64,000 nt of DNA from an uncultured Gammaproteobacteria bacterium (GCA_964424615.1 CAYRIU010000033.1:247-64246); one strand, 5' to 3'; positions 4,322 through 46,935 are shown, numbered from the stretch's first letter. Numbers and translations are program-made. The notes: a model not told the origin generated them from the sequence alone.

Positions 4322-4435
4322 TATATTTATATTATTTGTGCCCTATCATAACAAAAAAATTCTATTTTGACAACCTATAAATGCTAAAACTAGATGTTTG
4401 TTTGCGTTTATTAAGAGAAAATAGAGTTTAAGTAT

Positions 4436-4466
4436 AAAAAAGACTTATTTACTTAATAAGTCTTTC
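4436..4466 (-). terminator. intrinsic terminator downstream of the NYN-domain gene
   Basis: Hairpin AAGACTTATT-TACT-TAATAAGTCTT with T-run on the minus strand. Confidence 0.5.
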
Positions 4467-4473
4467 TAATAAG

Positions 4474-5025
4474 CTATTTTTCGTGAGGCGGGAAAAAATT
4501 CAATAGATCTTCTTTTCTTAATAACAGTAAGTCATCAGCCACTTTACTCAAGCCAAACGATTGATTGCTAGGAAAACCAATATATTTAACTTTCTTTTTG
4601 AAAGAATGCACTTCTTCAATAGCTGGCACTAAATCAGTATCAGAACTTATTAAAATAGCTTGGTCATATTCATTAAGACGAGCCATCCTTATCATCTCTA
4701 CAGCAATTCTGACATCCACGCCTTTTTCATGAAATGATTTGTCAGGATGTTTTATAATAGTGCCTAAAACAGTAGGGATATTATGCTGTTGCAAGCAAGC
4801 AATCAATCTTTGTTGGTCAGCATACATTGTTTCTGATTTTTTATCGCCAGCATGCCTTTTTATAGCGCCAATATAATATCTAACTCCAACCAACTCATTA
4901 TTTTGGCAGAGGAATTTTCCAAAAGCAGTATAGTCAAATTTTAATAAGCTAATTGACTTATCATTTATCAATTTTTTCCCGCCTCGATAGAAATTACTGC
5001 CGTCTATAAATACAAAACATCTCAT
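4474..5025 (-). CDS. NYN/LabA-like domain protein (predicted RNase fold)
   Basis: MRCFVFIDGSNFY...VRIAVEMIRMA...ILISSDTDLVPA pattern typical of NYN/LabA (PF01936-like). Start at the internal Met. Confidence 0.6.
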   Translation of the reverse strand: MRCFVFIDGSNFYRGGKKLINDKSISLLKFDYTAFGKFLCQNNELVGVRYYIGAIKRHAGDKKSETMYADQQRLIACLQQHNIPTVLGTIIKHPDKSFHEKGVDVRIAVEMIRMARLNEYDQAILISSDTDLVPAIEEVHSFKKKVKYIGFPSNQSFGLSKVADDLLLLRKEDLLNFFPPHEK

Positions 5026-5315
5026 ATTTTTTTCTCTAAAAAACTGCCATCCCAAGGATCTTGAGAGGGCAGTGAGATTAAGTACTTTCAATATATAGTA
5101 GGAGCCAATATTTGTCAAGAAATTGAGATATATCTTAATATTTCAGCAATTCATAGTTTTTATTCAGAGGATTAATAGAATAACATCTCGCCCCGCTACT
5201 AGTGAGTAGCGGGGTCAATATAAAGTAAATGTGTATATTTTGGCTAAAATAAGTCTAAAGATTATACATTTTACCTAATATTAGCCAAAATATATATTGT
5301 TACCCCCCCAAGACC

Positions 5316-5344
5316 TTGACAAATTTTGCCAAAAGGAGTATAAT
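5316..5344 (+). promoter_or_regulatory. sigma70-type promoter (TTGACA-17-TATAAT) driving the structured leader and GC-rich ORF
   Basis: Perfect consensus -35 TTGACA (5316-5321), 17-nt spacer, perfect -10 TATAAT (5339-5344). Confidence 0.65.
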
Positions 5345-5384
5345 TATATATTAATTAGATCATTTAAATATTACTTGCGAAACA

Positions 5385-5545
5385 ATGTAGTCATAGCCAA
5401 AAGTGACCGAAGGTCACCCTGAACTTGTTTCAGGGTCTAGTTTGAAGAGATTCTGAATCCGCCGGTTGGCGGATTAGAATGACGACGTAAGTCGGTTATT
5501 TCTGGCTATGACTACCAAACTGGTAGCCCGCTAGCAGTGTACGGC
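5385..5545 (+). promoter_or_regulatory. highly structured GC-rich 5' leader RNA (multi-hairpin junction closed by a 10-bp long-range helix); candidate riboswitch or cis-regulatory RNA
   Basis: GUCAUAGCCA (5390-5399) pairs with UGGCUAUGAC (5503-5512). Inside are hairpins GUGACC-GAAG-GGUCAC, CCCUGAA-CUUGU-UUCAGGG, AUUCUGAAUCCGCC-GGUU-GGCGGAUU-AGAAU and CGAC-GUAA-GUCG. A further GGCACAUGUGCC palindrome precedes the SD. Confidence 0.5.
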
Positions 5546-5571
5546 ACATGTGCCAAACAAGGAGTGAAGAC

Positions 5572-6147
5572 ATGTCTTCGTATTCCGAAGGTCAGACCCA
5601 TCAGCTGATGAATAGCTTGGAAGCTGTCGGCTACACCGCCGACGACATCACCAAGCTTGGTCAGTCCAAGCACCTGCCGCAGATCAAGGATGTGCTTTAC
5701 GGCCACGCTGTCATCAGTTACCACCAGCCCATCATCGACTGCGACGCCGCGCCCTTCCTGCCCAACGGCTGGAGTGTGGAGAAGCATACCAAGGGCGGTC
5801 AGTTCGAGTGGAACCCCACGCGGGTGAAGCTCTATCTGGCCAAGAGCCAGAAGCCCGGCAAGTTCGTCGAGGGCAACCAGCTCCGCAAGGAGCTGGAAGG
5901 ACAAAAGGTCCTGAACGCTAACGTTCTGGACGACCTGCTCGCCAACCCCACCTTCATCCCCGAGGAGTGGAAGGGCAAGGCGGTCTTCTTCTGGGGGACC
6001 ATCTACCGCAGCCGCGCTGGTCTCTTCGTGTGCTATCTCGGCTGGAACGACGGCAAGTGGGGCCGGGGCTGTAGTTGGCTCGGCGACAACTTCTACGATA
6101 ACGGTCCCGCCGCGGTTCTCGCAAGTATCCCCGCCTGCAACGTCTGA
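5572..6147 (+). CDS. hypothetical protein encoded by a high-GC (about 60%, GC3 >80%) foreign-looking gene
   Basis: SD AAGGAGTG before the ATG at 5572. Strong third-position G/C bias with aag/gac/ggc/ctg/atc codons. Protein composition is protein-like, whereas the opposite-strand ORFs are Arg/Pro/Ser junk. No known domain recognised. Confidence 0.6.
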   Translation: MSSYSEGQTHQLMNSLEAVGYTADDITKLGQSKHLPQIKDVLYGHAVISYHQPIIDCDAAPFLPNGWSVEKHTKGGQFEWNPTRVKLYLAKSQKPGKFVEGNQLRKELEGQKVLNANVLDDLLANPTFIPEEWKGKAVFFWGTIYRSRAGLFVCYLGWNDGKWGRGCSWLGDNFYDNGPAAVLASIPACNV

Positions 6148-6250
6148 GCGTAGTGATGGCGGGCAGGTAAGTCCTTTGGACTTTGTCCGCCAGCTGGCGG
6201 ATGGATCTCCTTAGATCTTTAGACCTTAGTCCTTGGGCTGCGTTTCTCTC

Positions 6251-6297
6251 AAGCTCCGTGTTCACCTCGTGTGGATGCGGAGCTTCTTCTTTTTTTA
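6251..6297 (+). terminator. intrinsic terminator of the GC-rich cassette
   Basis: AAGCTCCG...CGGAGCTT stem followed by CTTCTTTTTTT. Confidence 0.6.
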
Positions 6298-6434
6298 ATT
6301 TTATTTTTTTCTCTTAGGCTTAATTAGATATCTGATAATCTTGTTTTATCTAGGTTTAAAATCCTCTAAGTCTTCCCTTTTTTAAATAATTTGCTATAAT
6401 ATAGGCCTTATAATTAGTATAATTTAAAAATAAG

Positions 6435-7733
6435 ATGCAAAAGTTTAAATCACTTATCTTGTTTCTTTTGGAAATTGCTGTTTTATCGGCAGTTTTATTT
6501 TTTTTACGAGACAAGCTAGTACACAGTCACAATCATGAAATCAAAGAATATATGACTATGCTGGTAGACATTGCCTTTTTGGCTTTGTTTGCTTCTTTTG
6601 GTGGACGCTTGGCAAAGATGTTAAAGATTGCTCCAATGGCTGGCAAGATTATCATGGGTATAGTGGCTGGCCCGGCTTTGTTGGGGGTGATAGATCCCTA
6701 TGCTCATGGTGTGGAACTTGCGCGTTTAGCCGGTGTATTGTTTATTTTGTTTGAAGCTGGTTTGCATTTTGATATGGAGCTACTCAAGAAAAATTTTCTT
6801 ATTTCTACCATCATTGCTTTTGTCGGAGTTTTGATACCCTTGATTAGCTTTGCTTTACTAGGACATTATGTGATACATCTAGCTTGGGTACCAAGTATTT
6901 TCTTGGGTGGTATTTTTACTGCTACTTCCGTTGGTTTATCAGTCGAGGCTTTGAAACGGGCTGGTAAGCTAGAAACCAATATCGGTAATCAGATAGTGGG
7001 AGCAGCGGTGATTGATGATATCTTGGGCGTTATTGTTTTGACTGTGCTAGCCAAGCTATCATCTACTGAAGAAGTAGTCGGGGGCATCAACCCTTTTGTG
7101 TTGCTGGCTATCAGTGTTGTTGGTTTTGCTTTGGCTACATATTTCTTGTGGCAGTGGGGCGTAGCTCACAAGATTGCTACTTATCTTGGCAATAAGTATT
7201 CTGATAATAGCACAGGCATTTTTACTAGATTTTTCTTTGGTATGCTGATGCTTGGCGGATCATTGGCTGCGGTCATTGGTCTAGAGCCAGTTTTGGGAGC
7301 TTTTGGTATGGGTGTAGTCTTGTCCAAAGTTGATAATGAGATCAAGCATCACACTTGGGAAAAAATTGAAGGCTATATGCATATTTTTGTTGGTGGCTTT
7401 TTGGTCAGTATTGGTACTATGTTACCAAAATCAGCTGTCACGGATTACAGAGTGTGGCTCTGGGCCATCTTGTTTATGATCATAGGTTTTGGTGGCAAAT
7501 ATCTGACAAAATATTTGATAAAGGATAAGCATGAGGGTGTGTTGGTTGGCTTGGCTATGACTATTCGTGGTGAAGTGGGCTTGGTCTTCGTGGCCGTAGC
7601 TCTAGCTAACAAAGCCCTAGATGAGACCATGGCTTCGGCTGCACTACTCGCGGTTATTCTAGTTACAGTTGTTGGTGCTATTTTGTTTGAAAAAGCAGTC
7701 ATGAAAGAAAAACAACCAGCAGCAGTAGTTTAG
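6435..7733 (+). CDS. cation:proton antiporter (CPA2/Kef-type Na+/H+ exchanger family)
   Basis: 432 aa, about 12 TM segments; MAGKIIMGIVAGPALLGVI and later glycine-rich helices typical of CPA2 transporters. Confidence 0.7.
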   Translation: MQKFKSLILFLLEIAVLSAVLFFLRDKLVHSHNHEIKEYMTMLVDIAFLALFASFGGRLAKMLKIAPMAGKIIMGIVAGPALLGVIDPYAHGVELARLAGVLFILFEAGLHFDMELLKKNFLISTIIAFVGVLIPLISFALLGHYVIHLAWVPSIFLGGIFTATSVGLSVEALKRAGKLETNIGNQIVGAAVIDDILGVIVLTVLAKLSSTEEVVGGINPFVLLAISVVGFALATYFLWQWGVAHKIATYLGNKYSDNSTGIFTRFFFGMLMLGGSLAAVIGLEPVLGAFGMGVVLSKVDNEIKHHTWEKIEGYMHIFVGGFLVSIGTMLPKSAVTDYRVWLWAILFMIIGFGGKYLTKYLIKDKHEGVLVGLAMTIRGEVGLVFVAVALANKALDETMASAALLAVILVTVVGAILFEKAVMKEKQPAAVV

Positions 7734-7798
7734 TCTTTTCTTTTTCTTTTCTCACAAAATGTACTATAATTAAAGCCTAATCATTAATTTTATTCATT

Positions 7799-8008
7799 AT
7801 GATGTTTGGTTATTTTCTGATTATTTTAGGCATTTTTATCTTGCTCAAGGCTATGGGCATCATTGTTGCTAGCTTTTGGGGTTATTTTTGGGGCATTGCC
7901 TTGGTAGTCTTGGGTTTTAGCATGATCAACAAAAAAGGTGATCGTTGCTGCTGGGGTTGGTGTAGTCACAAAAAAGATCATCAACACAAAGACCAGAATC
8001 AGGCTTAA
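7799..8008 (+). CDS. small two-TM membrane protein with Cys/His-rich tail (hypothetical)
   Basis: 69-aa ORF; two hydrophobic helices then CCWGWCSHKKDHQHKD. Confidence 0.3.
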   Translation: MMFGYFLIILGIFILLKAMGIIVASFWGYFWGIALVVLGFSMINKKGDRCCWGWCSHKKDHQHKDQNQA

Positions 8009-8394
8009 TGCAACAAGTAAAAAGTGATAAAATTATTGAATTGGTCATAAACAAGTCCAAGTTTGTTGGCTTGGCTTGTTTTGTTTTTAGTCGCACGGAA
8101 ATTGAAAATAGATTAGCTTTGCTCAAAAAAGAATTTTCTGATGCTAGTCATATTGTCTATGCTTATCGGGTGATGGAAGATGGGTGTTTAAGAGAAAAAT
8201 TTTTTAATAGTCACGAGCCCAATGGCTCGGCTGGTAAACCGCTGCTTTATCTTTTGCAAAAAAAAGAATTGATGAATAGTATGCTAGTTGTAGTGCGATA
8301 CTTTGGTGGTAAAAAATTAGGCGTCGGTGGCTTGGTGCGAGCTTATACTCAGAGTGCCCAATTGGCTCTTGAAGATAATATAAAAGAAGCGTAA
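8008..8394 (+). CDS. IMPACT/YigZ family (UPF0029) N-terminal domain protein
   Basis: NKSKFVG...HIVYAYR...EPNGSAGKPLL...VVRYFGGKKLGVGGLVRAY matches the YigZ/IMPACT signature. Confidence 0.65.
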   Translation: MQQVKSDKIIELVINKSKFVGLACFVFSRTEIENRLALLKKEFSDASHIVYAYRVMEDGCLREKFFNSHEPNGSAGKPLLYLLQKKELMNSMLVVVRYFGGKKLGVGGLVRAYTQSAQLALEDNIKEA

Positions 8395-8960
8395 TGCCGA
8401 TAATCAGTAAAAAAATAAAACACCAAGGGCAAGAATTGGTTTTTAATATCAAGAGGCGAGCGAGGATAAGGTATGTGCGTCTGTCTATAGATAGTGCTGG
8501 TACTCTGACACTGACGGCCCCAAAATCTTATCCGTTTTTTTTATTAAAATTATTTGTGACTAAAAAATGGTCTTGGATCCTAGAAAAAAGTGAACAGAAA
8601 AAAAATAGCAAAAGTTTATTAGCTATCAAACATACTAAAGCGGAAATAAATCATTATAAAAAAATTACTAAACTTTTAGTTTTGGAGCGTTTAAAATATT
8701 TTAATCAATATTATAATTTTAATTTTAAAAATATTTCCGTGCGTGATCAAAAAAGTCGCTGGGGCTCTTGCTCATCGAGAGGTAATTTGAATTTTAATTA
8801 TCGCCTGAGTTTGCTACCTTTAGAATTAGCTGATTACATCATTGTGCATGAATTGTGTCATCTGCAAGAAATGAATCATAGTAATAATTTTTGGCAACTA
8901 GTGGCTCAAACTCAGCCAAACTATCAGCAGCTAAAAAAACAATTAAAAAGTCTTGTTTGA
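8394..8960 (+). CDS. YgjP-like metal-dependent hydrolase (DUF45/SprT-like, HExxH)
   Basis: C-terminal HELCHLQEMNHSNNFW motif typical of DUF45/YgjP; start codon overlaps the upstream stop. Confidence 0.55.
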   Translation: MPIISKKIKHQGQELVFNIKRRARIRYVRLSIDSAGTLTLTAPKSYPFFLLKLFVTKKWSWILEKSEQKKNSKSLLAIKHTKAEINHYKKITKLLVLERLKYFNQYYNFNFKNISVRDQKSRWGSCSSRGNLNFNYRLSLLPLELADYIIVHELCHLQEMNHSNNFWQLVAQTQPNYQQLKKQLKSLV

Positions 8961-43436: not shown

Positions 43437-44825
43437 ATGACATTAGACACTTTAATTTTATTAGTTGTTTGGTTGATTAATTTAGGTTTATTATTTTTTA
43501 TACTTTTTAATAAGAATAAAAAAAGACGTTGGCCTATCTTTACGATGGTTTTTTTGTTGTGGCTCTGGCAGAGTAGTGAGCTGGTTAATATTTTATTTTT
43601 ACTCAAAAGTCCTTATATACTATTAGGAGTCAGAGCTGGATTGTTGCCAACCTTGTATATTGCGCCAACTTTTGTTGTCTTAAGCTATTCTTTAGTTCAT
43701 CAATGGAACAATGTCCGCAAGTGGCAACATCTTTTTTTCCTGCCAGCTTATCTGATGTCACCTTTTGTTTTTAGTAAATACAATGTCAGTAATATCATAG
43801 TCGGTCCGAGTAGTGTCTCTTATGAGCCAGGGCCGATTTATTTTGTTTTTGCTATTTATTTTATCACTTTGATGTCTTGGGGTTTGGTAGTGTTGATTCG
43901 TCAGCGTAGTCGCTACGATCAGATAGTCAAGACACAGATTGATTATATTTTTGTAGCCACTGCTCTGACAGCAGCTTTGGCTCTTTTGTTTATTTTTATC
44001 TTGCCACTCTTGGGCGTGACAGCTTTTTACTACATGGGGGTCAATAGTAGTGTCATCTTTACGGGCATTGTCACCTATGCTTTGTTTCGTTATCGCTTCT
44101 TGGATTTGAGAATCAGTTTTTACAAAACTTTGGTCAATTTTGTGCGCTTGCTTTTGACGGGCTTGGTCTACGCTGTGCTTTATGTGGTATTGATTGGTCC
44201 AGTGCAAGTAGATTTTTCCGATACCATAAATAGTATTTTGTTTTTGGTATTTTTTGGTTTGACTGCACCGCTAGTCTTTGGTCTAGCTAGCTCGGCTGCT
44301 AAATTTTTTATTTATCATCCTTTGGAGCGTATCTTTCAAGCCGAAAATAATATTGCCACGATCTTGCGCTCTAGTCGCGATCTCAATCGCCTGATGTCCT
44401 CTCTGTCCAAGGAGATTGCCCAAGTGATTGATTACAAGGAAATATTTATTTATCTAGCCAAGCGTGGTGATGCTAATTTTTTTCATCAAGTTTATCCAGT
44501 CGGGGAGAGGACATTGCACATGGAGCATGATGTTTTGTTGCAGTATCTAGCCAAAAAACAAGATTTATTGCATAGTGCGGAGGTGCATTATCTTGATATT
44601 GATTCGAAGCTTAGCCAAGAGTTAGTAGATCATCATATTGACATATCTTTCCCAATATACTATAATAATCAGCTTTTGGGAGTATTGATGCTAGATAATA
44701 ATAAAAAGCTCCTTTATCAGCAACAGTTGGATTTTTTGCGAGAAGTAAATAAATATTTAGATATTGCTATTGGTAGTCTTCTGCTTTATCAGCAGGCCAT
44801 GGCCAATAGGGAAGAAAATAAGTAA
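43437..44825 (+). CDS. 7TM sensor-domain protein (histidine-kinase-type 7TM N-terminal region) with C-terminal GAF-like domain, no kinase domain
   Basis: Seven predicted TM helices in the first about 290 aa, with similarity to the N-terminus of the HK at 51938; C-terminal 170 aa looks GAF-like. Confidence 0.5.
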   Translation: MTLDTLILLVVWLINLGLLFFILFNKNKKRRWPIFTMVFLLWLWQSSELVNILFLLKSPYILLGVRAGLLPTLYIAPTFVVLSYSLVHQWNNVRKWQHLFFLPAYLMSPFVFSKYNVSNIIVGPSSVSYEPGPIYFVFAIYFITLMSWGLVVLIRQRSRYDQIVKTQIDYIFVATALTAALALLFIFILPLLGVTAFYYMGVNSSVIFTGIVTYALFRYRFLDLRISFYKTLVNFVRLLLTGLVYAVLYVVLIGPVQVDFSDTINSILFLVFFGLTAPLVFGLASSAAKFFIYHPLERIFQAENNIATILRSSRDLNRLMSSLSKEIAQVIDYKEIFIYLAKRGDANFFHQVYPVGERTLHMEHDVLLQYLAKKQDLLHSAEVHYLDIDSKLSQELVDHHIDISFPIYYNNQLLGVLMLDNNKKLLYQQQLDFLREVNKYLDIAIGSLLLYQQAMANREENK

Positions 44826-44833
44826 TTAAATCT

Positions 44834-45529
44834 ATGATTTTTACAGATTCTCAAAATTTAATATTATTAATTGCGGCTTTGATTAATTTATCGATGAGTT
44901 TATTTATTTTTAGCAGAGGAGCAAAAAATAAGGTAAATTTCTACTTTGGTTTAGTGACTTTGTTTAATTTTTTCTGGGCTACCTGTCTAATAGTTATTAA
45001 TTCAGCGATTAGCTATGAACTTACAAGGTTTTTTGGTAGCTTTGTCTACCCAATAGCTTTGATGGTAGTAATTAGCTTATTTTATTTTTCTATTTATTTT
45101 CCTTATGAATCTTTTAGGGTGAATAAAATTTATAAATGGTTAATTAATTTTTCTATAATTTTTTATTCTATTTACTGTAGTTTATTCTATAAATTTTTTG
45201 TCCCTAAAGTCGATTTACTGCCAAAGGTGATTGTTTATTATGAACCAGTAGTTTACACAATTTTTAGTGTCATTTTGATTACACTGATGTTATTTGCTAT
45301 CCATATTATATACAAGAAATATAAAATAGCCACGGGCATATTTAGAGTACAATTGATGTTGATATTAATTGCTGTTATTATTGGCACGGCAGCTGGTTGT
45401 TATTTCAATTTGATAGCCATGTATTATAACAATTTAGCTTATAATCACTTAGGTCCACTATTTACTTTGTTTATTAATTTAGTAGTATTTGGTTTCATTA
45501 TTTCTTCTAGAGAAAAAATAAGTAATTAA
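44834..45529 (+). CDS. standalone 7TM sensor-domain paralog 1 (HisKA_7TM-like)
   Basis: 231 aa, about 7 TM helices; N-terminus and C-terminal SREKISN tail conserved with the next two genes. Confidence 0.55.
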   Translation: MIFTDSQNLILLIAALINLSMSLFIFSRGAKNKVNFYFGLVTLFNFFWATCLIVINSAISYELTRFFGSFVYPIALMVVISLFYFSIYFPYESFRVNKIYKWLINFSIIFYSIYCSLFYKFFVPKVDLLPKVIVYYEPVVYTIFSVILITLMLFAIHIIYKKYKIATGIFRVQLMLILIAVIIGTAAGCYFNLIAMYYNNLAYNHLGPLFTLFINLVVFGFIISSREKISN

Positions 45530-45533
45530 ATAT

Positions 45534-46232
45534 ATGATTTTATTCGCTTGGCAAAATATTGTATTAATTATTACTGGTTTGGTTAATCTAGTCATGGGCA
45601 TTTTTGTATTAAAAAGAGGCTTGAGGAGTAAAATTAATTTATATTTTTCTACTTTGGTATTTTTTAATTTTTTGTGGAGTATTTTTATAGTGGGGGCTTT
45701 TTCATCTAATAATCTATCGATGGTTAATTTTTTTGATAAAACAACTAATTTATTTGGCATTGGTATTATTTTATCATTATTTTACTTTACTTTATATTTT
45801 CCATATCAGTCAGATAAAATAAGCAGTTTTAAGACAAAATTAATTTGGTTTTCTTCAATAGTTATTTCTTTTATGATTTACACCAAATGGTTTGTCGTTA
45901 ATACTATTTGGGTTGCAAGGCCATTTAGTTATATTTCATATTATAATAAATACGGTTATTTTGTTTATACCTTATATTTTTTTGTTTTTGCGTGCTGGTC
46001 AATATACTTTTTATTTAAAAAATATAGGAAAGTAGAAGGAGTTACTAGGTTGCAGTTAAAACGATTAATGTTATCAATTGTGGTGGGTTTGATTTGTGGA
46101 GCTTACTTTAATTTAGTATTGAACTACCTCGGTGTTTTTAATCTTGGTTGGCTTGGGCCGTTTTTTACCTTATTTATGAATATAGTAGTTTTTCAAACTA
46201 TTAGATCACCTAAAGAAAAAATAAGTAATTAG
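45534..46232 (+). CDS. standalone 7TM sensor-domain paralog 2
   Basis: 232 aa; same architecture; ends SPKEKISN; intergenic junction AAAATAAGTAATTAAATATATG conserved. Confidence 0.55.
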   Translation: MILFAWQNIVLIITGLVNLVMGIFVLKRGLRSKINLYFSTLVFFNFLWSIFIVGAFSSNNLSMVNFFDKTTNLFGIGIILSLFYFTLYFPYQSDKISSFKTKLIWFSSIVISFMIYTKWFVVNTIWVARPFSYISYYNKYGYFVYTLYFFVFACWSIYFLFKKYRKVEGVTRLQLKRLMLSIVVGLICGAYFNLVLNYLGVFNLGWLGPFFTLFMNIVVFQTIRSPKEKISN

Positions 46233-46236
46233 ATAT

Positions 46237-46935
46237 ATGAGTATTTTTTCAACACAAAATTTTATTTTATTGGTTGCTGCTTTTGTAAATTTATTTATGA
46301 CATTTTTTGTCTTTAGACGTGGCATCAAAAATAAAATAAATTTATATTTTGGATTGTTAACCTTTTTTAATTTTACTTGGAGTTTAGGATTGTTAATTTC
46401 TAGATCCATTGAGAATATTAGTTTGGTAGCTATAGTAGCTAGAAGTACTTATATTTCAGCTTTAGCTATAGTTATTTTTTTATTTTACTTTGTTCACCAT
46501 TTTCCCTATCAGGCGGAAAAATTAAAAATTTATACTCATATTTTCATTTTATTTCCGGCTATTATTTTATCGTTTATAGTTTATACAAAATTTTTTATTC
46601 TTGATACAGTTAGAGCTTATAGTAATTTAGAGTACATATCTTATTACAATAAGTCTGGTTTTTTTCTTTATGCTATTTATTTTGTTATTATAGCTATTTT
46701 AGCTTTAAAGAAGTTATTTAAAAAATATAATTTATCAGAAGGTTTATTAAAACAGCAAATAAAAATGTTATTAGTCTCTATCATAATTGGTTTATTATTT
46801 GGTAGTTATTTTGATTTGTTTATCCAATATTTTAATGATTATAGATTTAATTGGCTGGGTCCTATATTTACCGTATTAATGAATTTTATTGTTTTCTTTT
46901 TTGTTATTTCCCCTAAAGAAAAAATCAATGGTTAA
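46237..46935 (+). CDS. standalone 7TM sensor-domain paralog 3
   Basis: 232 aa; same architecture; ends SPKEKING. Confidence 0.55.
   Translation: MSIFSTQNFILLVAAFVNLFMTFFVFRRGIKNKINLYFGLLTFFNFTWSLGLLISRSIENISLVAIVARSTYISALAIVIFLFYFVHHFPYQAEKLKIYTHIFILFPAIILSFIVYTKFFILDTVRAYSNLEYISYYNKSGFFLYAIYFVIIAILALKKLFKKYNLSEGLLKQQIKMLLVSIIIGLLFGSYFDLFIQYFNDYRFNWLGPIFTVLMNFIVFFFVISPKEKING

Follow-up and report, generated by a model that had tools for sequence, protein, structure and literature searches.

Diversity-generating retroelements (DGRs) rewrite the ligand-binding face of a protein: a reverse transcriptase (RT) together with Avd copies the RNA of a template repeat (TR), misincorporating opposite adenines, and the resulting cDNA replaces the variable repeat (VR) at the 3' end of the target gene, so that scaffold codons free of adenine stay fixed. 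Multi-target DGRs with remote targets are known from Legionella, Treponema and cyanobacteria, and an adjacent RT or Avd is not required of a remote target. DGRs are abundant in bacteria of the candidate phyla radiation (CPR), where targets without recognisable domains and a Patescibacteria-restricted 'DGR clade 2' have been described and remote targets have been discussed (Roux et al. 2021, PMC8144416). A 'CPR set' of DGRs, many of whose VR classes are unclassified (UVR1-6), has also been reported (Wu et al. 2018, PMC5758913), and C-type lectin folds carry the VR in Mtd of the Bordetella phage BPP-1, TvpA of Treponema, TaqVP of Thermus and the archaeal AvpA (PMC5758913). The subject of this analysis is an open reading frame (ORF) of 191 amino acids (aa), ORF 5572-6147 on the plus strand of a 64,000-nucleotide stretch of DNA (GCA_964424615.1, CAYRIU010000033.1:247-64246; the window), which very probably encodes a protein of this kind.

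Our analysis points, with high probability, to ORF 5572-6147 being an orphan or remote DGR variable-protein gene that was inserted as a self-contained unit from another Patescibacteria genome. Within that identity, it is an even call whether the gene is an active remote target. Like the CPR targets in the published sets (PMC8144416, PMC5758913), its product is small and cellular, has no recognisable transmembrane segment or Pfam domain and carries the VR at its extreme C-terminus, and its relatives show adenine-specific TR-VR mismatches with RT and Avd nearby. It differs from these sets, to which it was matched by description, in that RT, Avd and TR are all missing from the 64 kb that contain the window copy. 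A target without an adjoining retroelement is a less common but known situation. In remote targets the VR and an end resembling the initiation of mutagenic homing site (IMH) lie far from RT and TR and are diversified in trans, an arrangement found in this family for locus L013 (TR) and locus L077 (VR); for the window gene, no trans-acting TR was seen in the 64-kb window. The likeness to Mtd, TvpA, TaqVP and AvpA is in design: a beta-sheet and two helices make up the C-terminal domain, whose final strands and loops are encoded by the VR, a scaffold rich in Trp, Gly and Leu alternates with variable positions derived from Asn, and a GC-rich inverted repeat (TCCGCCAGCTGGCGGA, 6186-6201 in the window) lies beyond the IMH-like end.

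The original prediction for this locus, made from the sequence alone, held that the protein matches nothing and proposed a homology search, which overturns that statement: a word-indexed search finds 948 homologues of the 191-aa protein, typically ~185-195 aa in length. Among the best 120 of the 948, from which the details are taken, nearly all are 180-225 aa long and share 49-80% identity over 79-100% of the query. When cluster representatives are scanned exhaustively with HMMER, 2624 clusters at 50% identity are obtained, with a conserved core at residues ~53-185, and a relative is encoded in 329 GTDB species genomes. Neither Pfam (no significant match) nor a sequence search of the PDB (no relative) recognises the protein. 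An AlphaFold2 (AF2) model with a predicted local distance difference test (pLDDT) score of 92 begins with a module of three helices; its C-terminal domain combines two helices with a beta-sheet, the last strands of which come from the VR. The architecture of the family is modular. In some members (P0121, P0122 and P0124; 481-804 aa) the ~130-aa C-terminal domain occurs three or four times in tandem, and in other members the N-terminal helical module is duplicated (P0058 / L007). A phage-borne family was considered and rejected, since 2.9 million viral contigs contain only five relatives, all of them partial.

The nature of the family is revealed by the genes that surround its members, whose neighbours were clustered at 80 loci of relatives. 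Downstream of the target, an ORF of ~350 aa that Pfam assigns to the RVT_1 reverse transcriptases is present in 29 of the 80 loci, and an ORF of ~128 aa that Pfam assigns as bAvd-like is present in 21. In 38 loci the last ~123 bp of the target gene is copied 300-500 bp downstream as a TR, and 610 of the 658 TR-VR mismatches at these loci fall on TR adenines. In the codon alignment of the relatives, AAC and AAT codons of the TR stand opposite mixed, Asn-derived codons of the VR, and the scaffold codons TGG, CTC, GTC and CGY are unchanged; the repeat ends in GCA ACT in the TR and in GCA AGT in the VR. Such adenine-biased mismatch is the defining signature of a DGR and, since the relatives carry it, the family is, as judged from these alignments, a DGR variable-protein family. 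Remote targeting also occurs within it, as indicated by a pairing in trans in a single metagenome-assembled genome (MAG): the TR of L013 and the VR of the RT-less L077, on another contig, are 81% identical, and 19 of their 24 mismatches lie at TR adenines.

Two further features of the related cassettes may be recorded here. The bAvd-like gene (L074 7020-7403, minus strand, with equivalents in 20 other loci) runs in the opposite direction to target, TR and RT and sits between the TR and the start of the RT, head-to-head with the latter, unlike the avd-TR-brt order of the Bordetella phage. In L005, the 3' half of an RT-less target is followed by a 270-bp copy (6287-6555 vs 6979-7245) with 78% identity and no adenine bias among its mismatches (18 of 60), which may be a decayed TR or a truncated paralogue.

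In the window gene, the VR corresponds to the Trp-scaffolded hypervariable C-terminus 'WNDGKWGRGCSWLGDNFYDNG' of the protein (Table 1). Compared with the gene of L118, the VR-like stretch 6004-6126 differs at 42 of 117 sites and the gene body at 51 of 438, a roughly threefold faster rate. Against L118 (74% aa identity) and L001 (68%), the VR-like region differs at 0.36-0.40 of sites and the rest of the gene at 0.12-0.20. From these comparisons, the stretch has clearly been a fast-evolving VR.

The unit that contains the gene is a newcomer at its present site. Mfd, encoded next to it, is 79-90% identical at the aa level in the six sister genomes inspected, and the names of Mfd homologues (Patescibacteria, Parcubacteria or Nomurabacteria) identify the host of the window, at sequence level, as a Patescibacteria bacterium. 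All six sister genomes lack both the NYN gene and the DGR target at the junction of mfd and the Na+/H+ exchanger: in L127, L129 and L131 mfd and the exchanger are ~150 bp apart, in L130 the exchanger is missing as well, and in L126 and L128 a 154-aa lipoprotein-like gene occupies the same junction. By blastn, collinearity with the window is at 80-84% nucleotide identity in L126 and L127 and at 74-86% in L128; in the former two it stops at window positions 4334-4373 and restarts at 6372. Since the six sister genomes are without the segment, the comparison supports a recent, lineage-specific insertion of ~2.0 kb at a variable spot. As the cargo at this junction differs in two of the sisters, the position immediately following TTTGACAA(A)TT seems to be a hotspot where insertions recur. 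The lipoprotein-like ORF itself (L126 8410-8874, L128 819-1283) has a signal peptide plus Cys and no Pfam match, and its GC content is 0.47-0.53 vs 0.38-0.40 for its genomes. Another route to synteny, via relatives of the Na+/H+ exchanger, was uninformative, as none of its 37 metagenome loci contains another neighbour from the window.

Relatives of the gene occupy other sites and appear to move as discrete modules. The L118 target, which is 74% identical to that of the window and its nearest relative on a long contig, adjoins uvrC; downstream of it lies a GC-rich ORF of 94 aa (L118 6868-7152, also L119 1031-1315) that has neither a Pfam match nor an equivalent in the window. In the pairs L028/L034 (~5808-8440) and L015/L067 (~5822-8370), shared homology extends for ~2.6 kb, from the promoter to just past the RT, and the flanks are unrelated. 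Within these shared cassettes identity steps from 93-99% upstream to 70-89% downstream of the TR/Avd border (~7007 in L028/L034), which suggests, from the alignments, an exchange of target-plus-TR modules.

The composition of the gene is as unusual as the original prediction had stated. Its GC content is 0.601 (60.1%), vs 0.370 for the 64-kb window overall, and by codon position it is 0.57, 0.41 and 0.82. Native genes with the same third-position GC (GC3) were not found, as the other ATG-started ORFs of at least 150 aa in the window (n=50) range from 0.16 to 0.43. In 50-bp steps, the block of high GC spans ~5400-6270 and is made up of the ORF, its 5' leader and its 3' untranslated region (UTR). 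The opposite-strand ORFs, earlier set aside as Arg/Pro junk, are three (5512-5904, 5832-6002 and 5954-6265) and are indeed rich in Arg, Pro and Leu because they are the reverse strand of GC3-rich coding DNA. The earlier description of a cassette with its own promoter, structured leader and terminator is also borne out (12/12 promoter match; z = -6.0 for the leader; terminator at 6251-6285). The start codon is placed at 5572, where AAGGAG lies 7 nt upstream and where nearly all family members open with MS..., and an alternative ATG at 5548 was rejected on these grounds.

This composition is a trait of the family. Mean GC in the target gene exceeds that of the flanks by 10 points, and the gene is the richer of the two in 75 of 80 loci. 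By region, in the 77 loci whose flanks reach at least 2 kb, the offset is +18-21 points for the VR, +10 for the TR and +7-8 for the non-VR gene body, and RT and Avd lie 3-4 points below. The GC content of the RT follows that of the host with a slope of 0.93; for the target the slope is 0.49 and the intercept 0.30. GC3 values are scattered over the family tree. In VR and TR, GC-richness is to be expected, since A is barred from scaffold codons and adenine mutagenesis depletes it. The whole-gene excess is accompanied by low synonymous divergence (dS): in pairs of GC3-rich cassettes the dS of target vs RT is 0.09 vs 0.99, 0.23 vs 0.64 and 0.37 vs saturated (3-10x lower), and in GC3-poor lineages the two are similar. 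Tentatively, the GC3 excess could reflect selection on synonymous sites (mRNA/codon), or modules of target plus TR that were exchanged recently and repeatedly, with repair biased towards GC. High expression of the target is suggested by the consensus promoter and the strong Shine-Dalgarno (SD) sequence. Three related ideas were set aside. Selection for a strongly folded coding region is weakly supported, the fold being only slightly better than that of shuffles (z = -2.4); translational selection as on other window genes was rejected, given that no other window ORF has a GC3 >0.43; and a GC gradient fading from the VR, as from repair tracts centred on it, was not seen along the gene.

Several observations weigh against an inserted DGR target, and in particular against one that is still active. 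No integrase, transposase, att site, direct repeats or target-site duplication was seen in the gene maps or, by eye, at the junctions. Foldseek searches with the AF2 model return weak C-type lectin matches (E 0.1-1, none significant), no more than a hint of the C-type lectin fold that DGR targets are expected to have. A blastn search of the 64-kb window found no second copy of 5901-6300 and hence no cognate TR, and hidden Markov models (HMMs) built from the relatives' 29 RT and 21 Avd neighbours found neither gene among its six-frame ORFs. The window VR has a one-codon deletion and two substitutions, R154C and W165R, in scaffold residues shared by at least 90% of members, none of which can arise by adenine-directed change, and its differences from relatives at sites other than A amount to 0.31-0.35, against 0.20 among those relatives. 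This non-A-site excess and the scaffold changes fit a decaying orphan, or a divergent TR elsewhere. With the nearest available TR, that of L002, the contrast between A and non-A sites in the window VR is marginal (p = 0.02-0.13) and non-A changes are frequent; the best relative TR is ~71% identical to the window VR, with roughly half of the mismatches at A. These changes, the lack of RT, Avd and TR, and the fact that the closest relatives of the gene, L001 and L118, are likewise without an adjacent DGR all favour a relic, that is, a former DGR target minus its retroelement that now undergoes ordinary mutation and is either a fixed-specificity binder or heading for loss. However, the ORF, consensus promoter, leader, SD and terminator are all intact, the unit was inserted recently, and remote targeting is demonstrated in the family by L013/L077. 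In addition, the non-VR part compared with L118 gives a nonsynonymous divergence (dN) of 0.11, a dS of 0.24 and a dN/dS of ~0.45, and with this ratio and so low a dS the gene is therefore not obviously a pseudogene. A relic seems rather unlikely, although it deserves to be taken seriously. The same cannot be said of an assembly chimera, or a contaminant fragment in a low-GC contig, as the source of the GC island, the chance of which is next to negligible. Composition does change sharply at ~5400 and ~6270, but the order Mfd-NYN-target-exchanger recurs in a second assembly (Logan SRR6837549, L120), which makes a chimeric contig unlikely; the island is continuous with the AT-rich promoter, leader and terminator, and sharply bounded GC-rich target genes are found in dozens of independent MAGs.

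The original prediction explained the island by a recent gain from a high-GC donor, for instance the actinobacterial host of a CPR epibiont, with retention of the donor's codon usage. Parts of this proposal stand: the composition is extreme, the unit is an insertion relative to the sister genomes, in which it is absent from six of six, and the host, suspected to be a CPR bacterium, belongs to Patescibacteria by its Mfd homologues. The high-GC donor, however, has to be given up as highly improbable. Homologue source names that specify a lineage are, among the matches listed (best 120 of 948), all Patescibacteria/CPR, and the GTDB record titles of relatives are mostly CPR or generic, some with other labels, with no actinobacterial record. 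The nearest relatives of the gene (68-80% aa identity) have equally high GC3, with host GC contents of 33-45%. Promoter, leader and 3' UTR, the last of which is similar in L118, L001 and L002, are of the conserved CPR family type. Moreover, the GC excess is family-wide, non-VR target GC3 being higher than the GC3 of the cassette's own RT in 25 of 25 cassettes (0.648 vs 0.473, p = 6e-8). Because the gene family is GC-shifted in every host, its high GC tells nothing of the composition of a donor genome. A spillover of adenine mutagenesis from the VR into the rest of the gene would explain the low proportion of third-position A in the window gene (3.4%) and the strong GC enrichment of the VR, but it too is very improbable as the cause of the GC3 excess: A/(A+T) at third positions is equal in target and RT (0.41 vs 0.43, p = 0.52), T3 drops as well and C3 gains most, the excess is flat over the gene body, showing no decay from the VR and ending at the ends of the gene, and RT-less copies carry an equal excess.

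For the inserted DGR target that we prefer, the following course of events is proposed. The target unit would have entered the interval from mfd to the Na+/H+ exchanger in an insertion of ~2 kb, along with the NYN gene or beside it, most likely from another Patescibacteria genome. Given that RT, Avd and TR are absent from the window, the copy would either be diversified from a distance, by a DGR acting in trans from another part of the genome, or have been orphaned recently. The GC island would have two layers: (a) an intrinsic GC-richness of VR and TR; and (b) a family-wide, target-specific synonymous rise in GC, with low synonymous divergence, that is not adenine-specific. The cause of the second layer may, tentatively, be selection on mRNA or codons that favours strong expression or a stable RNA, or else repair that is biased towards GC in a module that recombines often.

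Conservation in the family extends to the whole transcription unit, terminator included. Most family members share an architecture of a near-consensus promoter, an ACTTGCG box, a hairpin P1 (GCCAYAGC...GCTRTGGC, with a variable apex) and a linker with (A)GCCCGCTGGCA, followed by a second hairpin, AAGGAG and a hairpin enclosing the start codon. In the window the leader (5352-5600) folds at -88.9 kcal/mol, and its z score is relative to shuffled controls. P1 in the clade of the window has a ~100-nt apical insertion that forms three hairpins, and the GGCACATGTGCC hairpin of its linker is the shortened counterpart of the GCAACnnGTTC...GAACnnGTTGC hairpin of other clades, whose covariation was noted by eye. 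In the seed alignment of P1, compensatory changes on both sides occur in 17 of 20 pairs and 93.9% of cells are paired, vs 36-54% when the partners are slid, and 0 of 500 shuffles reach the observed values; the seeds were picked for having a stem, which favours pairing. The covariance model R1 built for P1 matches the window only at 5383-5519 as a distinct site (45.9 bits, E = 7e-8). Of 81 sources, the window included, 54 have a match, one at each locus and in every case immediately before the target; 332 kb of unrelated loci have none. Start-codon stems of 5 bp or more are found in 60% of 72 family members vs 27% of 433 control ORF starts (p = 3.5e-8), and their arms covary (GAAGAC/GTCTTC, GTTGAC/GTCAAC, GACGAC/GTCGTC).

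Table 1. Positions of the features discussed, counted from the first letter of the window
Feature	Position	Strand	Remarks
Lineage-specific segment, ~2.0 kb	4374-6371		NYN gene (4474-5118, minus) plus GC-rich unit; boundaries approximate
Sigma-70-type promoter, TTGACA-17 nt-TATAAT	5316-5344	+	12/12 consensus match; equivalent in most related loci
ACTTGCG box, 5' end of leader	5373-5379	+	just upstream of P1 in many related loci; by eye
Leader hairpin P1	5383-5519	+	arms GTAGTCATAGCCA (5387-5399) and TGGCTATGACTAC (5503-5515); covariance model R1
Leader linker	5520-5554	+	conserved motif (A)GCCCGCTAGCA, then short hairpin GGCACATGTGCC (5543-5554); from alignments and fold
Shine-Dalgarno AAGGAG; start-codon hairpin	5559-5564; 5565-5580	+	7-bp stem around ATG
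191-aa DGR variable-protein homologue	5572-6147	+	N-terminal three-helix domain, aa 1-45; C-terminal alpha/beta domain, aa ~53-185
VR-homologous region	6004-6126	+	last 41 codons; codon-for-codon alignment with VRs and TRs of relatives; IMH-like GCA AGT at 6121-6126
3' UTR	6148-6250	+	CCTT/CTTTGG-type short repeats; GC-rich inverted repeat TCCGCCAGCTGGCGGA at 6186-6201
Intrinsic terminator	6251-6296	+	15-bp stem (6251-6285), then T-run
Stand-alone HisKA_7TM paralogues	44834-45529; 45534-46232; 46237-46935		

The geometry of this leader suggests, as a prediction from sequence conservation, a control of translation initiation or of mRNA stability. Like riboswitches, ribosomal-protein leaders and RNA thermometers in which the SD or the start codon is occluded, it is a covarying structure between a promoter and the start codon of one gene family, and a hairpin covers the start codon in the window. 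It differs from the described cis-regulatory leaders in that it belongs to no Rfam family and is a candidate regulator from sequence alone: a scan of the window with Rfam 15 at gathering thresholds returned only a tRNA, and a permissive scan of 5100-6450 gave only chance-level matches, with no family for the leader. Upstream of it, between the NYN gene and the target promoter, the interval 5182-5298 contains a GC-rich hairpin CCCCGCTACTAGTGAGTAGCGGGG (~5192-5215) and a long AT-rich inverted repeat (~5235-5297), for which Rfam matches are likewise at chance level (for example Spot_42, at 25.9 bits vs a gathering score of 80).

A bolder and, in our estimate, doubtful extension of these results is that the target mRNA itself is a functional, structured and regulated RNA under RNA-level constraint in Patescibacteria DGR systems, and that its units move as modules. 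The pointers to such a constraint are the covarying 5' leader and start-codon hairpin, the target-specific synonymous GC, which the adjacent RT and Avd genes lack, and a dS that is 3-10x below that of the RT. If so, the target mRNA may be long-lived, either riboswitch-like or autoregulated, or it may take part in retrohoming, and target units would travel between genomes from promoter to terminator as self-contained modules. We did not find the structured leader, the target-specific GC3 excess or the dS pattern described in the literature searched, and make no claim of priority.

The identification turns what appeared to be an alien gene from a host into an identifiable hypervariable binding protein of a kind diversified by retroelements in Patescibacteria. 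Such proteins are plausibly relevant to the recognition of hosts or phages by epibionts. The case also carries a warning, namely that a sharp GC3 island in these genomes is no evidence on the composition of a donor. The identity of the gene is ordinary for these organisms, and the notable parts are the leader RNA and the synonymous-site anomaly; together with modular exchange, the leader RNA and the target-specific constraint on synonymous sites are features of wider interest for DGR biology.

Elsewhere in the window, at 43437-46935, a 7TM-GAF protein (HisKA_7TM + GAF) is followed by three tandem stand-alone HisKA_7TM paralogues of ~232 aa each (Table 1). The GC content of the paralogue stretch is 0.22-0.26 vs the window mean of 0.37, and it forms an AT-rich counterpart of the GC island.

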